DNA from: Dictyostelium discoideum | Taxonomy: Eukaryota | DNA: 64,000 nucleotides | Assembly (NCBI GenBank): GCA_000004695.1 | Contig: CM000151.3 | Location: 1,760,001-1,824,000 of the forward strand | Direction of reading: 5' to 3' | In this document: positions 6,195 to 28,556 of the stretch, in pieces | Layout of the letters: each line of letters starts with the position of its first letter | Numbering within the stretch: the first letter of the stretch is position 1 | Position numbers and translations under genes: made by a program | The notes under the pieces: model-generated | Database searches by the model: none | Told to the model about the DNA's origin: nothing | The model's input: the letters and a program-made list of their open reading frames with translations, nothing else

Positions 6195-6480
6195 CATCAC
6201 ACATAACTATTATTCCAATAATCAAAAAAAAAAAAAAAATTATATATATAGATACAAAATAAAATTTTGTTTTTAAATTACATCACACACACCCAATAAA
6301 TTAATCACTAAAAATTATCAATCAAATAATTCTTTATCAAATTAATTGTTTTTTTTTTTTTATTTTTTTTTTTTTATTTTTTTTATGCGCTATCCAATTT
6401 TTCCAAAATCTCAAATTACTATTTTCCCAAATTTTCCATATTTTTTTTTTTTTTTTTTCAAAAAAAAAAAAAAAAATAAT

Positions 6481-6588
<108 letters not shown>

Positions 6589-6679: not shown

Positions 6680-10133
<3,454 letters not shown>

Positions 10134-17161: not shown

Positions 17162-18747
<1,586 letters not shown>

Positions 18748-18861
18748 ATTTGTGGGTAAATTTTAAAAATAAAAAAAAAAAAAAGAAATTTTTGTGAAAA
18801 AAAAAAAAAAAAAAAAAAAAAAATTAGATTATTAATTTTTATTTTTTTATTTTATTTCAAC

Positions 18862-19983
18862 TTATTCCAAAAGTCGAAGTTTTGAAAGGAAACCCAAGAT
18901 TTCTTCAAAATCATTTAAAATATCCCATTTTTTTTTTACATTATGAATTTCTAATTTAATTTCCAGATATTTTAATGATTTATTTTGTTTTAAAAAGTTT
19001 GAAATGAATTGAATTTCTTGACCATTAAAAATAATACTTGAAAATTTATTTGTATAAAAAAGTGGGGGATCATCGGCTACTACTATTAAACGTTTAATAT
19101 TTGAATTTTCATTACAATGTTGAAGAAATGGTAACAATGAATAAATTTCACAATATAATGATGAGATTGTTGGTATCTTTATTAATGGTGATAATGTTTT
19201 AGATGATGATGATTCCTCGATTTCAATAGTTGGTATTTTAATATACTTGGTTTGAATTTCATCAAATTTTCTAAATTTAAAGCCAGATAAACCCAATGTC
19301 GTTAATGTTTCATTTCCAATTAATGATTCTAATAAATTTGATGAGTCATCTAAAATAAAATCATCTCGGATTGGACAAAAAATTAATAATTCTTTTAATA
19401 TTTTATTTTTTGATAAATTACATTCTTTTAAAAGATTACTAACTAATTCTTCCTTTTTCTCTTTTACTAATTCCATTAATAAATTATTATCGTCATTTGA
19501 TTCATTACAATTTAATAGTTTTTTAATAAAATCAATACCATCATAATTATCATATTCAATTTCATCTTTAAAATTTGGTAATCTTAAATAAAGTGATTTT
19601 AAATTTGTTGATGTTTCATTTGTTTTTTTTATTGCATTTTTAAAAAATAAAGATGGAGTTTGATGATAACCAAATTTAATTTCCTCTATTGTTTCACAAT
19701 TTAATATTTGATTTAAATTTTGAATATGTAATGGAACAGGACCAATTTTTGTTGTTATATAAATACTCTTTGGTTTATATCTATTTAAAAATTCAAATGA
19801 ATATTCAAAAAGTAAATAATTATCTCTGAAACCATAATCATAATATTCATGAGTTGATGAGCATGGATATATTTCTTGATCCCAAAATAATTTAATTTTG
19901 TTAAATTTAAAAAAACCATCACATGTTGGATTCTTACTATATGTATCTGCCAAAACTCTATTAGTGATTATAACATTTTTTAA

Positions 19984-20054
<71 letters not shown>

Positions 20055-20523
20055 CATTATCATTAATTAATATTATTAAATGATTCTTTAAAATATCGAA
20101 TTGATTAAGATTAATACTATTAAATTCACGGTTAAATGTGCAATATAAATTTTCGATTTCTTTGTATTGAATTAATTTATAGTTATATTCGCCTTCATGT
20201 TGATGATTTTTTGTAATACTATTATGATGGTTTTTATTTTGTAGAAATGAAAGTGTTTGAATATTTCTTTTTTTTAAAACTGGTTCTACAATTTCATTTT
20301 TGGTATTTTGATCATTATGAATGAAAGAAATGAAACTATTGATGTTGGGAAAGAATTTTATTAATTGTTGTTGGTAAGTTATTATTTGTTGAACATATTT
20401 AAATATTGATTTATTTATTAAACTAATCTCTAATATTATTTTAAATGGTCTATTATATAATAAATATGGAAGTACATCAATAAAAACTAAACTATTTAAT
20501 TTAATTGTATTAACATTTTTTAA

Positions 20524-20607
<84 letters not shown>

Positions 20608-20622
20608 TTTATTGTTATTCAT
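18862..20622 (-). CDS. Lineage-specific 586-aa protein with N-terminal poly-N, a weak F-box-like motif and an internal duplication of the poly-N-KKLKNV segment
   Basis: Single uninterrupted minus-strand ORF with AAATG start context. LNSLVFIDVLPYLLYNRPFKIILEISLINKSIFKYVQQI resembles the F-box second half (...SK.W/F...). The segments at 20520-20590 and 19975-20060 are near-identical (aat)n+KKLKNV units, i.e. an internal tandem duplication. No recognisable enzymatic domain. Confidence 0.75.
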
Positions 20623-22321: not shown

Positions 22322-23065
22322 ATCATGATGAAAGTGCTTCACATAAAAATAATAATAATAATATAACAATAATAATATTTAAATGTATAATAAAATTTAA
22401 TTACTTTTTTTTTAATGGTTGTTGATCTTTATCCGACCTTAAAAAAAAAAAAATAAAACCAATAGCTATTGTTTTTTTTTTTAATTGTTTTTTTATTTTT
22501 TATTATTACTTTAATTATCATTTTTTAAATTACAAAAAAAATTAAAAATCCAGATATTAAGGTATTTGCACTAGTGCTTTAACGTTAAAATTTGAAAAAA
22601 AAAAAAAATTAATAATTTTACCCTTTATGGGTAAACGATTCTCACATATAATACAATCTCCATGAAAAGGATATCTCCAAATCAACTTCATCCAAATTAT
22701 TTAGAATTTGAATTTATAATTGTTCTGTTATGAATGATTTAAAATCAAATGACCAACAGTTGAATGATATTACAAATCAAATAAATAATTTTCAATCAAA
22801 AATGTAAATAAAAATACGCACATGCATCAAATTATTCAGATCTCAAAAAATAAAAATAAAAAAACATATAACTAAATTAATTAGAATTTGTTTTAAAAAA
22901 AATATTTATTTTGAGAAATGAAAAATTCCTTATTTTAATTTTTTTATTTTTTCATTTTTTTTTTTTTAAAAAAATGGTTGTGCCAAAAAAAAAAAAAAAA
23001 AACTCTGTGGGTGGACTAAAATAAAAAAACCACCACATTTTTTTTTTTCAGATAAAGAAATAATT

Positions 23066-24688
23066 ATGGACAGTGAAGAACACATAAATAAAAAACTAAA
23101 GATAGATGATATCAAAGAAGAAAACAATAATAATAAAAAATTACAAAATTATATTTGTAAAAATATTGTAGAATTATTAATTAATTATTTATTAAAAAGT
23201 AAAAAAAAGAGATCAAATTCAAATAATAATAGTTTTGAAAGATTTGAAAAAAAACAATTCATATTATATTTGGATGAAATTATTACTCTTTCTTTAGTAT
23301 CAAAAAAATGGTTTAAAATAATATCAGATTTTATTTCAAATGGTATAATTGAACAGAAAATAATTGATTATTGGTTCAGTGATGAGGGAGATGATGCAAC
23401 AACACTACACAGAGGCGAAGATGCAACAACACTACACAGAGGCGAAGATGCAATGAAATCAAATAAATATTATTCATTAATAAAAATAGATGCAACCACA
23501 ATTGATGATTTTTTCAGTTCTAAATATTATTATATTGAAAACTTTCAAGGAGCTAAATTTAATCCAGTAACAACAACCGATGATGAACCAAAGAAATTCA
23601 TTAATAATAATAATAAGACCTTTAAAAGGATTAAAAACGATGATGAACCAAATAAATTCATTAATAATAATAATAAGACCTTTAAAAGGATTGAAAACGA
23701 TGAAATAAAAATATTATTGCAAATAACAGATAGACTTAATGAGAGTGTAAAAGTTGATTTACTTTATCAATCAATCGATGAAGAGTATTTAATACCAATT
23801 GAAAAAAATGATAATATTATTGTGGAAAATTTAAAATTGGAAGGAGTTGATACGGAATATTCCTCAACATTATCAAATATTTTTAATTTTCAACCAAAAC
23901 ATATAAAATATAATCCAAATGGTGTTTATTGTCAAGATTCATATTTCCATATGGATTATTTAGAATTATTCAATCCAGATAATTTGGAAATTTCTGCTTC
24001 TCCCACTTTGCCACTATCAACCAATAGAACCGAATCTATTAAAATTAATACAACAGATCATGTTGAACCATTTCATTTACATAATTTAGAATCATTTCCA
24101 AATTTAAACTCATAATCAATTCCAATGTTACTTCATGATTTGTTCATTTGTGCCAATAAAGAGGATGCAAATGTATCAGAGAATGGATGTAATTATCATA
24201 ATGATGGATTAACGAAAACTTCAAATATAAAACAAGATTGGGATAAAATGATTTATTCATTAATAAATTGTAAATCATTAAATAATTTAAGTATTTTAAA
24301 TTTTTGTTCATATGGTTTTGATTGTATTGAAAAAATTAATAATTTGATTACTAATGATGATGATGATGAACCACTCTCAAATGGACTACAAAAATTATTA
24401 TCTTGTAAAAATTTTCAATATTTAAAATTAATAGGATTTGATTTTATTAAAGATATTAATAAAGTATTTTCATCATTGGTAAACAGTAATAATGGTTCTT
24501 CAATTAAAACATTAATATTAGAATGTTCTCTACATAAAAAATCATTTGAATATTGTCATGAACTTTCAAATTGTTTATTATCCAATATTTATAATTTAAA
24601 TTTAACATATCTAAAAATTAATTTTGTATTTTCAAATGATGAACATGGTTTAAAAATTTTATCATTTATTTTTGATACTTTAATTCAA

Positions 24689-24719
<31 letters not shown>

Positions 24720-25018
24720 GACAACAATTAAAAGAAAGAAATGAAGAATATGGAAATATCTTTACATTTAATGATAGTAGATTACATCATATTGAATTCA
24801 GTATGTATCTTGAACACTTTGATACTGTTTTTGGTAAAATTAAATCTTTATCAAATGATCAATCAAAAATACCAAATTCATATCCAATTGTAAAAGAAAT
24901 TCATATGTGCATTTTGATGACAGATAAAAAAGAAAAGGTTTTATTAAAAAAAAGAATACAAGACGAATATTATATGTCAAATTTAAATGATCATAGAACT
25001 ATAATCAATATTTTGTAA
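23066..25018 (+). pseudogene. F-box-like paralog A of the 26396..28252 gene, interrupted by an in-frame TAA at 24116-24118 and carrying two internal in-frame tandem duplications (27 bp and 60 bp)
   Basis: ORFs 23066..24115 and 24125..25018 are in the same frame. They are separated only by a TAA where paralog B has TTA (...NLNS*SIPMLLHDLF vs ...NLNSLSIPMLLHDLF). Duplicated units: gatgcaacaacactacacagaggcgaa x2 at about 23391-23444, and a 60-bp unit (DDEP.KFINNNNKTFKRI.N) x2 at about 23575-23700. Both are single copy in paralog B. This could be a true pseudogene/allele or a base-call error. Confidence 0.45.
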
Positions 25019-25179
25019 ATATCCAAAAAAAAAAAAAAAAAAAAAAAAACCATATCCAATTTTCCAATATTATAATATTTAATAATAAAATTAAAATAAC
25101 AATTATTTTTTATTATTTTTTTTGTTTGTTTTTTTTATTTTTTTTAATTACTTTAATTATCATTTTTTAAATTACTAAT

Positions 25180-25214
25180 TGACTTTTAACACAAAAAATA
25201 AAAAAATTTTTCAC
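25180..25214 (+). repeat. Left terminal inverted repeat of the piggyBac-like relic
   Basis: See mobile_element 25180..26216. Confidence 0.6.
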
Positions 25215-26181
25215 ATTTTTTTACACCTTAAAAAATTAAAAAAAAAATTAATAAAAATTCAGATATTTATTTTCGAAAACAAATATTAAAATGAAAGTGT
25301 GTATTTTTTTTTTTCTATTATTTTTATTGAACATTTAACCATTCTATAAATAAAATGACAAAAAAATCAGAAAAAATAAACAAAGAAAGTAATGTTCAAA
25401 AACAATAATTACAAAGGCCCAAATTGATCAAAAAATGATGGATCACAATAGATATTCAGCAGTACATAATGTTTTGGATATGAAAAGTCATAGATTTGAA
25501 GAATATTGTGAATTGTTTATGAACAGTGCATTGAAATATATTAATATTGGTAACGTTCTGAATTGTGATGAAACAATATACGCATATTATGGGAGAGATG
25601 CTACTAAAGATCATATATTGATAAATAATGATAGTAGACCCCATTCAGTCGGAATTGAAGCATATAGTCTAACAACCAAATTGAATATTAGTAATTGTCC
25701 ATATGTAATTAGTTATGGTCCAAGAACAATAGAAAACTGTAAATCTCCTTTCAATTCATTAAAAACCCTTTTTGGATAATTTACATTCAAAATATAATTG
25801 GGAGGATTCAAGGAATAACTTAATCGTATGTTGCGATAGTGCCTTTGCATTAGTAAATAATAAAGAATGTTTAGATAAATTGAAATGTCGTATTTTATCC
25901 TCAACAAGGAAGAGTGGCGTGACTATTCCTCAAGAAATTAAAAGATTCGTCAAACCTTTATTAACCATACATAAAACATTCCTTTTTTATGATGAAAGCA
26001 CAGGACTATTGTACGAGTATACCAAAAATACCGATGGTCATATCAATTGCATTGCAACAAATCTATATTCAAGATTCAAACCCATATGTGGAAATTAATA
26101 ATAATCTAAATATAGAACAATTTGCAACTATTGGAAATTTATTTCGTTTTTCAAAAAAAGAATTAGAACTAATTTTTGTTG

Positions 26182-26216
26182 GTGAAAATTTTTTTTATTT
26201 TTTGTGTTAAAAGTCA
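26182..26216 (-). repeat. Right terminal inverted repeat of the piggyBac-like relic
   Basis: See mobile_element 25180..26216; one A/T difference from the left copy. Confidence 0.6.
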
Positions 26217-26395
26217 GCGAAAAAAATTATAAACCCAGATTTTTAAATTAATTTTTATTTACAAAAAAAAAATTTTTTTTGAAAATTGCACCTCTTTATT
26301 GAAAAAAAAAAAAAAAATAATTGATATTTTTTTTTTTTTTTTTTTTTATGTTGGTAAAATAAAAAAACCACCTTTTTTCAGATAAAGAAATAACT

Positions 26396-28252
26396 ATGGA
26401 CAGTGAAGAACACATAAATAAAAAACTAAAGATAGATGATATGAAAGAAGAATACAATATTAATAATAATAATAAAAAATTACAAAATTATATTTGTAAA
26501 AATATTGTAGAATTATTAATTAATTATTTATTAAAAAGTAAAAAAAAGAGATCAAATTCAAATAACAATAGTTTTGCAAGATTTGAAAAAAAACAATTCA
26601 TATTATATTTGGATGAAATTATTACTCTTTCTTTAGTATCAAAAAAATGGTTTAAAATAATATCAGATTTTATTTCAAATGGTATAATTGAACAGAAAAT
26701 AATTGATTATTGGTTCAGTGATGAGGGTGATGATGTAATAATACTACACAGAGGCGAAGATACAATGAAATCAAATGAATATTCATTAATAAAAATAGAT
26801 GCAACCACAATTGATGATTTTTTCAGTTCTAAATATTATTATATTGAAAGCTTTAAAGGAACTAAATTTAATCCAGTAAAAACAACTGATGATGAACCAA
26901 TTAAATTCATTAATAATAATAAAACCTTTAAAAGGATTGAAAACAATGAAATAAAAATATTATTGCAAATAACAGATAAACTTAATGAGAGTGTAAAAGT
27001 TGATTTATTTCGTCAATCAATTGATGAAGATTTATTAATACCAATTAAAGAAAATGATAATATTATTGTGGAAAATTTAGAATTGGAAGGAATTAATATG
27101 GAATATTCATTATCAAACATTTTTAATTTTCAACCAAAACATATAAAATATGATCCAAATGGTCCTTATTGTCAAGATTCATATTACCATATGGATTATT
27201 CACAATTATTCAATCCAAATAATTTGGAAATTTCTACTCCTCCCACTTTGCCACTATCAACCAATAGAACCGAATCTATTAAAATTGATATATCAGATCA
27301 TGTTGAACCATCTCATTTACATAATTTAGAAGAATCATTTCCAAATTTAAACTCATTATCAATTCCAATGTTACTTCATGATTTATTCATTTGTGCCAAT
27401 GATAAGATTGCAAATCTATCAGAGAATGGATGTGATTATCATTATGGTGAATTAGAGAAAACTTCAAATATAAAACAAGATTGGGATAAAATGATTTATT
27501 CATTAACAAATTGTAAATCATTAAATAATTTAAGTATTTCAAATTTTTGTTCATATGGTTTTGATTGTATTGAAAATAATAATAATAATTTTATTACCAA
27601 TGATGAACCACTCTCAAATGGACTACAAAAATTATTATCTTGTAAAAATATTCAATATTTAAAATTAATAGGATTTGATTTTATTAAAGATATTAATAAA
27701 GTATTTTCATCATTGGTAAACAATTGTAATAATGGTTCTTCAATTAAAACACTAATATTACAATGTGATTGTTCTCACTATAAAAAATCATTTGAATATT
27801 GTCATGAAATTTCAAATTGTTTATTATCCAATATTTATAATTTAAATTTAACATATCTAAAAATTAATTTTGTATTTTCTAATGATGAACATGGTTTAAA
27901 AATTTTATCATTTATTTTTGATACTTTAATTCAAAAACAACAACAACAACAACGACAACAATTAAAAGAAAGAAATGATGAAAATGAAAACATCTTTACA
28001 TTTAATGATAGTAGATTAAATCATATTGAATTCAGCTTGCATCTTAAACACTTTGATACCATTTTTGGTAAAATTAAATCTTTATCAAATGATCAATCAA
28101 AAATACCAAATTCATATCCAATTGTAAAAGAAATTCATATGTGCATTTCGATGACAGATAAAAAAGAAAAAGTTTTATTAAAAAAAAGAATACAAGACGA
28201 ATATTATATGTCAAATTTAAATGATCATAGAACTATAATCAATATTTTGTAA
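26396..28252 (+). CDS. F-box-like lineage-specific protein, 618 aa (intact paralog B)
   Basis: Single ORF whose 5' leader (ttttttcagataaagaaataa[t/c]tATGgacagtgaagaacac) and 3' flank are conserved with the copy at 23066. ...QFILYLDEIITLSLVSKKWFKIISDF matches the F-box C-terminal half (LSLVSKKWFKII). No other known domain recognised. Confidence 0.8.
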   Translation: MDSEEHINKKLKIDDMKEEYNINNNNKKLQNYICKNIVELLINYLLKSKKKRSNSNNNSFARFEKKQFILYLDEIITLSLVSKKWFKIISDFISNGIIEQKIIDYWFSDEGDDVIILHRGEDTMKSNEYSLIKIDATTIDDFFSSKYYYIESFKGTKFNPVKTTDDEPIKFINNNKTFKRIENNEIKILLQITDKLNESVKVDLFRQSIDEDLLIPIKENDNIIVENLELEGINMEYSLSNIFNFQPKHIKYDPNGPYCQDSYYHMDYSQLFNPNNLEISTPPTLPLSTNRTESIKIDISDHVEPSHLHNLEESFPNLNSLSIPMLLHDLFICANDKIANLSENGCDYHYGELEKTSNIKQDWDKMIYSLTNCKSLNNLSISNFCSYGFDCIENNNNNFITNDEPLSNGLQKLLSCKNIQYLKLIGFDFIKDINKVFSSLVNNCNNGSSIKTLILQCDCSHYKKSFEYCHEISNCLLSNIYNLNLTYLKINFVFSNDEHGLKILSFIFDTLIQKQQQQQRQQLKERNDENENIFTFNDSRLNHIEFSLHLKHFDTIFGKIKSLSNDQSKIPNSYPIVKEIHMCISMTDKKEKVLLKKRIQDEYYMSNLNDHRTIINIL

Positions 28253-28258
28253 ATATCC

Positions 28259-28289
<31 letters not shown>

Positions 28290-28556
28290 ACATATCAAAT
28301 TTTCCAATAATAAAATAACAATTGTTTTTTATATATATAAACTACATTAAATCTTTTTTTTTTTTTTTATTATTATTTTTTCTTATAAATATTTCTTTTT
28401 TTTTTTTTTTTCTTTCTTTTTTTTTATGTTTTTTTTTTTTTTTTTTTTTTTATCCTTGTTCGTTTTGTAAGTATTTCTAAAAAAAAAAAAAAAAATCTAA
28501 ATGAAGTCGATTGTGTTTTTTTTTTTATTTTTTCATTTAGATTTAAAATTGTAATA

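Follow-up and report, generated by a model that had tools for sequence, protein, structure and literature searches.

The window analysed here is a stretch of 64,000 nucleotides of Dictyostelium discoideum DNA (GenBank assembly GCA_000004695.1, contig CM000151.3, positions 1,760,001 to 1,824,000 of the forward strand; all coordinates below are window positions unless stated otherwise), which a homology search assigned to chromosome 2 of strain AX4. The region has a GC content of approximately 22%, and its intergenic parts contain long homopolymer runs and also CAA/AAT repeats. Two related genes, referred to as copy A and copy B, lie there in tandem on the forward strand. Copy A (23066-25018) consists of 650 codons with one in-frame stop and is, we believe, a disabled paralogue of copy B (26396-28252), which is an intact open reading frame (ORF) of 618 codons. 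Copy B corresponds to DDB_G0272540 and is annotated in AX4 as a protein of 603 amino acids starting from a downstream methionine, and as a protein of 618 amino acids in a second assembly, GCA_054883475.1, the gene models of which carry ACTFIT tags. Copy A is annotated in AX4 as two genes, DDB_G0272490 (349 amino acids, the N-terminal half) and DDB_G0272488 (256 amino acids, the C-terminal half). That both copies are already annotated public genes was missed in the original prediction, which was made from the DNA letters. A literature search with the gene identifiers returned no paper naming them. The results presented here support the view that the locus consists of two young tandem duplicates of a social-amoeba gene which is uncharacterised and evolves fast, and copy A is probably a single, freshly disabled non-processed pseudogene of the AX4/NC4 lineage.

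The original prediction described two tandem units with conserved leaders and 3' flanks encoding proteins 85-90% identical, and named a lack of colinearity as evidence that would speak against it. In the pairwise alignment it had called for, the unit of copy A (23017-25113) was colinear with that of copy B (26355-28332) over about 2.0 kb, with approximately 95% DNA identity, and the proteins were identical at 544 of 610 positions (89%). All 11 insertions and deletions that distinguish A from B are multiples of three. The 5' leader of A (23017-23065, forward strand) corresponds to 26355-26395 in front of B, with perfect matches (100%) over blocks of 18 and 21 nt and 8 extra nucleotides inserted in A. 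The 3' flank of A (25019-25113, forward strand) corresponds to 28253-28332 after B, and the right edge, at about 25113 in A and at 28332 in B, terminates in AAAATAACAATT[A/G]TTTTTTAT. This element was found at 25093-25115 and 28314-28334, and in an imperfect form at 22452-22478, just upstream of the first unit, and it thus brackets the array. It is possible that it was the substrate of the duplicating unequal exchange; it is AT-rich and a chance match is conceivable.

When translated from its ATG, copy A contains exactly one internal stop in 650 codons, a premature TAA at codon 350 (24113-24115, forward strand). The corresponding codon is TTA (leucine) both in B, at 27356-27358, and in the outgroup gene from a diverged strain (BR, see below). 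The truncation of A by a single TTA to TAA change had been predicted correctly, but at 24116-24118, where the codon is TCA. The leucine lost is L321 of B, a residue which is leucine in at least 90% of the family members and which lies within the most conserved block of the family, HVEP..L...N.L.NLhtLSIP.L.H. Past the TAA, 297 codons follow without a second stop or a frameshift, and an ATG occurs three codons downstream. In the ACTFIT assembly copy A is 100% identical to the window, TAA included. A base-call error is thereby ruled out, and the TTA which according to the original prediction would have indicated an intact gene was not seen in this independent sequence. Over the surrounding 6.5 kb the ACTFIT assembly and the window differ by 0 mismatches and 3 small gaps, so it derives from the same strain lineage as AX4. 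Copy A thus carries what distinguishes a non-processed pseudogene, i.e. a derived disabling lesion by comparison with an intact paralogue and an intact orthologue (TAA in A, TTA in B and BR), and the lesion is present in independent sequence, from the same strain lineage as AX4.

Copy A also contains two in-frame tandem duplications, both of them anticipated in the original prediction. In the 27-bp duplication (23393-23453, forward strand; DATTLHRGE twice) the copies at 23393-23419 and 23420-23446 are identical, and Tandem Repeats Finder reported 2.3 copies with 100% identity over 23393-23453; the 7 nt that follow the copies, GATGCAA, are the first 7 nt of the unit. The copies of the 60-bp duplication (23578-23697, forward strand), with CGATGA at their boundaries, show two differences, at 23593 and 23633; here the same program reported 2.1 copies with 96% identity over 23578-23703. 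BR has neither duplication and has TTA at the position of the stop, hence all three A-specific features are derived in A. The 60-bp duplication predates the 27-bp duplication. The microhomologies of 6-7 nt which bound both duplications are the signature of slippage between short direct repeats. As in other coding duplications attributed to replication slippage, the copies are perfect or near-perfect, head-to-tail and associated with direct microhomology of 6-7 nt; what differs is that the 27- and 60-bp units are non-repetitive and not microsatellite expansions, and that the gene tolerated the two of them, in frame, prior to its inactivation. The proposal of paralogue divergence or pseudogenisation by slippage-type events therefore holds for the origin of the duplications but not for the inactivation, since these are in frame and only the point mutation disabled A.

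As an outgroup we used the syntenic locus (L005, 20.5 kb) of the ACTFIR assembly GCA_054859385.1, which was reached from a gene model for a 146-amino-acid fragment. Over the syntenic approximately 20 kb this locus is about 10% diverged from AX4 at the nucleotide level. Its gene order is actin, two remnants of a copy at the position of A (AR), an intact gene at the position of B (BR, 636 amino acids) and a CBS-domain gene. The AR remnants match A at 24139-24348 and from 24764 through the 3' flank; deletions have removed the 5' half and a piece from the interior. The locus contains neither the transposon nor the 28-nt motif that are described below for AX4. The TAA in AX4 and the deletions in ACTFIR together indicate that the copy at the A position was inactivated independently in two lineages, and its independent loss in the diverged strain argues for its dispensability. 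A test of gene conversion or concerted evolution involving A and B had too few informative sites (1 and 3 in the two fragments when grouped by strain, 1 and 2 by position). Exact look-ups of neighbour proteins for further strains led only to ACTFIT for the 586-amino-acid neighbour and only to non-syntenic actin loci for actin. ACTFIW_001726 (P0004) was considered as a divergent allele of the locus and rejected, its own locus (L002) being non-syntenic. The ACTFIR assembly is labelled D. discoideum, yet a divergence of about 10% from AX4 is large within one species, which suggests a cryptic lineage.

Changes polarised with BR amounted to 35 nonsynonymous and 6 synonymous in A and to 35 and 9, respectively, in B (Fisher p=0.57). 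No relaxed constraint was detected in A relative to B, and there was no acceleration either before or after the stop; we interpret this as a lesion too recent to show. Since all indels are in frame and the rates of A and B are equal, the in-frame changes seem to have arisen at a time when A still behaved like a functional gene, and the stop would be the most recent event. Approximately 7% of random substitutions in such an AT-rich ORF create stops, and the probability that the ORF stays open under the substitutions observed was about 0.05 for B and about 0.01 for BR. The density of nonsynonymous changes was non-uniform, 0.030 in the first 110 codons compared to about 0.10 elsewhere (p=7e-5), while synonymous density was uniform along the ORF (p=0.78). 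In the linker and the first half of the leucine-rich-repeat (LRR) region, omega, the ratio of nonsynonymous to synonymous rates (dN/dS), was 1.6-2.1, which is not significantly above 1 (p=0.12). The picture obtained is that of a protein constrained at its N-terminus and moderately so at its C-terminus, with rapid evolution of the linker and the first LRR half in between. As part of the explanation given below, we consider it probable that copy B is kept open by selection.

The family to which the two copies belong is small. An exhaustive HMMER scan of 1.84 billion representative sequences found only 12 relatives, all from group-4 Dictyostelium species, and the family with its conserved motif set reaches as far as D. 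purpureum. A second and a third word-indexed homology search were unproductive for this family, and the third missed DDB_G0272540 itself. None of the 14 members matched a Pfam LRR family at E<=1, and a sequence-profile search of the PDB with the family was empty. B was modelled with AlphaFold2 on the basis of the alignment of its family; the model had a mean predicted local distance difference test (pLDDT) score of 64.7, and residues from about 190 to 618 were modelled confidently, with a regular alternation of strands and helices. The model obtained high scores against F-box/LRR structures solved with Skp1, namely FBXL17 (15.9), COI1 (14.4) and FBXL2 (13.7), followed by D3 (12.8), Skp2 (12.5), FBXL3 (12.1) and TIR1 (11.8). 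The curved solenoid of beta-strand/alpha-helix repeats that characterises the RNI-like leucine-rich-repeat superfamily is present in the model, while an LRR motif detectable with Pfam is absent, and the solenoid (residues about 190-618 of B) lies C-terminal to the N-terminal motif, as in the FBXL-type architecture. As far as the predicted fold goes, the family is therefore established as one of LRR proteins with a C-terminal solenoid of about 430 residues.

The F-box-like character attributed to the genes in the original prediction turned out to be weak, the firm domain being the LRR solenoid. The N-terminal consensus, which in B falls within residues of about 28-95, reads LPxYI..II..II.YLL, then approximately 25 amino acids, then Y..EII.LSLVSKKWF..IS, and by sequence it looks like an F-box into which a loop of about 25 amino acids has been inserted. 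The N-terminal half of A matched the Pfam F-box PF00646 with E=0.06 and 13.7 bits (cutoff 20.5), B had no match to PF00646 or PF12937, and across the family 3 of 14 members matched a Pfam F-box, the best with E=0.025, without reaching the curated threshold. When the insertion was artificially excised, PF00646 was the top match in all six members tested, covering positions 4-38 of the 43 in the hidden Markov model, and two of the six reached 22.3 bits, compared to the cutoff of 20.5. In hhalign, the N-terminus of the family aligned with seven Pfam-validated F-boxes with a probability of 81% and E=1.3e-5, over only 19 columns (helices 2-3). The B model has helices at 31-46, 65-78 and 83-94, within a region of pLDDT below 50. 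That this is a family of F-box proteins is plausible but unproven. By analogy with the FBXL proteins, the likely role predicted for its members is that of substrate receptor in an SCF (Skp1-cullin-F-box) ubiquitin ligase, in which the N-terminus would dock on Skp1 and the LRR domain would bind the target. The FBXL-type SCF receptors Skp2, FBXL2/3/17, TIR1, COI1 and D3/MAX2 are among the closest known systems. Several dozen candidate F-box proteins have been reported for Dictyostelium, the receptor domains of which are too divergent for substrate prediction (PMC10539598). Two further members of the family, of 626 and 505 amino acids, lie 1.6 kb apart in D. cf. discoideum (GCA_054859235.1; 10001-15018 of locus L012); a gene for a DDE_Tnp_4 transposase is located directly upstream of this pair, and a third, near-identical member a few genes away. 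Tandem expansion beside mobile elements recurs in the gene family of A and B.

The intergenic DNA around copy A contains two further features. A short block of 84 nt (22475-22558, forward strand) is duplicated at 25116-25175 (92% identity in 60 nt), with a continuation at about 25240-25267. Within the block lies a 28-nt motif of which exactly two copies exist, 22506-22533 and 25148-25175 (0 expected in shuffles), i.e. about 530 nt before the start of A and about 130 nt after its stop. Each unit has the block at its 5' edge, but only in the AX4 lineage; the syntenic locus of the other strain lacks it. Of a 3'-flank motif predicted to recur at 22500-22540, the second copy is real, but it is not a shared 3'-flank motif, as it is absent downstream of B. 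The duplicated unit extends upstream of A only as far as the 84-nt block is concerned. The 458 nt between the block and the leader of A (22559-23016) have no counterpart upstream of B, and a global alignment of 22559-23016 with 25268-26354 gave only fragmentary chance matches. This 458-nt segment is not present in the ACTFIR locus, being part of what was deleted there. A BLAST match seemed to place the 28-nt motif in the ACTFIR remnant; it ran through T-rich sequence and was rejected on the basis of a four-way alignment and an exact search.

The spacer between A and B contains an internally deleted, frameshifted copy of a DNA transposon (25180-26216, 1037 bp, strand not assigned), which the original prediction had missed. 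Its terminal inverted repeats (TIRs) of 35 nt, 25180-25214 and 26182-26216, are 97% complementary and unique in the window, and ORF fragments occur at 25435-25779 and 25772-26098. It has only two relatives, one at the same locus of the ACTFIT assembly and one at a non-syntenic locus (L004) of D. cf. discoideum, where the ORF matches at 92.6% over 769 nt and the same terminus lies about 200 nt upstream of the ORF. Inverted repeats and a copy at an unrelated locus are what identifies a TIR DNA transposon. The element is absent from the syntenic ACTFIR locus, and its insertion consequently took place in the AX4 lineage, once the duplication had occurred. The gene model ACTFIT_002572 in the spacer represents a transposon fragment annotated as protein-coding. 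Like the Dictyostelium TIR transposons DDT, Tdd and thug, the element has TIRs (35 nt), a degenerate ORF and a related copy in a sister genome; unlike them, it shows no Pfam match (none at E<=1 for a transposase domain in the ORF fragments or their fusion) and no clear target-site duplication, and 210 nt inside the left TIR (25212-25421) have no match in the L004 copy. Comparison with the named Dictyostelium transposons gave no family match. The spacer ORF has a piggyBac-like look (CDETIYAYYGR ... CCDSAF), which is an impression only. The 28-nt motif was considered as part of the transposon terminus, and rejected as it is not beside the TIR in L004. Three A-rich 'CCAGAT' boxes were seen in all: a '...CCAGATATT' box after the 28-nt motif upstream of A (22534-22558), a second copy inside 25212-25421, and a third, similar box after the right inverted repeat (26220-26246).

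The neighbourhood of A and B is prone to duplication. Directly upstream of the actin gene, on the minus strand (17822-20622), two genes are tandem paralogues with 53% identity outside a poly-Asn tract (E=6e-23) and no Pfam domain; they were examined as possible members of the A/B family and rejected (BLASTP E=0.17). Repeats of 110-135 nt with 93-99% identity, in inverted orientation, link genes near 6.5-7.7 kb (6474-6588 and 7553-7692) with genes near 31-34 kb (about 31.4-34.0 kb); they were seen as secondary BLAST matches of L001 to the window.

The explanation which we favour, and which taken as a whole we regard as probable, is the following. A and B would be young tandem duplicates from a small, lineage-restricted family known only from group-4 Dictyostelium. 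After the duplication, A would have gained in-frame slippage duplications, 60 bp and then 27 bp, together with other in-frame indels, and would still have been gene-like in its behaviour while these accumulated. Very recently, a single T>A change would have converted a conserved leucine codon to TAA at codon 350, with loss of the whole LRR domain. In the diverged strain the copy at the A position would have been destroyed separately, by two deletions, and a DNA transposon would have entered the A-B spacer in the AX4 lineage only. As is usual for non-processed pseudogenes of tandem arrays, there is a paralogue disabled by a nonsense mutation, an intact neighbour and an independent deletion in another lineage; what differs is that A is extremely young, with a single lesion and no detectable rate acceleration, and its promoter-proximal leader and flanks are still conserved. 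The locus illustrates birth-and-death turnover of a tandem gene family, which is ordinary and not a new kind of system.

Several observations weigh against this explanation or parts of it. The dN/dS ratio is about 1 overall (0.98 for A versus B) and similar on the A, B and BR branches, and taken alone this would also fit neutral drift of non-functional ORFs. Neutrality would also allow for the single stop that A has among its 42 substitutions (P(<=1 stop)=0.2), so that the term recent rests mainly on the in-frame indels and the equal rates of A and B. A, B, AR and BR are roughly equidistant, which fits either order of the duplication and the strain split. The ACTFIT assembly that confirms the stop shares the strain lineage of AX4 and says nothing on natural populations. 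As to the protein, the F-box stays below the Pfam threshold in native sequences, and residues 1-181 of B were modelled at a pLDDT below 50.

With dN/dS close to 1, no Pfam domain and no literature on the gene identifiers, it could be argued that neither copy is a real functional gene, and that both are ORFs drifting in an AT-rich genome, the stop of A being the first visible lesion. We find this quite improbable. The chance that an ORF of more than 600 codons would survive the observed substitutions is P=0.05 for B and P=0.01 for BR, every indel keeps the frame, nonsynonymous changes are spread very unevenly along an ORF in which synonymous ones are uniform, homologues with the conserved motif set extend to D. 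purpureum, and the model has a confident LRR fold. At the opposite end, the TAA could be a sequencing or assembly error and A intact, since A and its paralogue differ there by just one base and the region is AT-rich; however, GCA_054883475.1 has the identical base despite differing elsewhere by small indels, and the stop was accepted by the AX4 annotators, which leaves this idea hardly any credibility.

An A that is still functional could be reconciled with a real stop in two ways. One is a split gene, producing an N-terminal protein of 349 amino acids, which would comprise the F-box-like region and the linker without the LRR and could serve as a decoy or dominant-negative Skp1 binder, and perhaps also a separate C-terminal LRR protein starting at the internal methionine at 24125 or at the annotated start of DDB_G0272488. 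The AX4 annotation has two genes, the frame remains open past the stop with an ATG shortly after it, and A evolves no differently from B. The absence of further lesions is, however, expected anyway if the stop is recent, the halves have no promoter-like intergenic region between them, given that coding homology runs on uninterrupted across the stop, and the deletion of the A-position copy in another strain argues for dispensability. Nor would eukaryotic ribosomes be expected to reinitiate after an ORF as long as 349 codons. We therefore judge a split gene to be unlikely, if less so than the drifting ORFs. The other way is that the stop is bypassed, by translational read-through or by splicing out 24062-24163 (forward strand), to give a near-full-length protein. 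A GT...AG pair does flank this in-frame segment of 102 nt containing the stop, and the automated gene model ACTFIT_002571 (616 amino acids) takes it out as an intron. Dictyostelium intron donors follow a GTAAGT-type consensus. The donor here is GTTGAA, the GC content of the segment is coding-like (26%, compared to 16% in intergenic DNA), and the segment, which is colinear coding sequence in B and BR, contains the codons of the family's most conserved block; on these grounds the intron was judged an annotation artefact, of a kind that gene predictors routinely make up to dodge stops. Bypass of the stop thus seems very unlikely. ACTFIT_002571 was also considered as an intact A allele of another strain and rejected, because at the DNA level it does not differ from AX4, the stop being simply spliced out in the model. 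Copy A is handled incompatibly in three public annotations: AX4 divides it into two genes, and the newer assembly makes it a single gene by inventing an intron. The preferred reading remains that A is a single gene disabled by one nonsense mutation.

The value of these results is mostly practical, in that they correct the annotation of copy A and of ACTFIT_002572. An orphan Dictyostelium family gains its first structural assignment, an LRR solenoid with a possible split F-box, and the locus provides a clean, dated case in which one member of a tandem pair gained slippage duplications and then a nonsense mutation, while a second strain lost its copy in parallel. Nothing in this would surprise a specialist, and a wider interest would arise only if the family were under diversifying selection in an SCF-based system of defence or conflict. 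It is conceivable, although we hold it to be doubtful, that these are Dictyostelium-specific SCF-type receptors of an arms-race family, with the linker and first LRR half under diversifying selection and the Skp1-docking end conserved. If that were true, copies would be gained, disabled and deleted differently between strains, the candidate targets would include bacterial or viral effectors, selfish elements and social conflict between strains, and the stop in AX4 would be a segregating null allele rather than simple decay.

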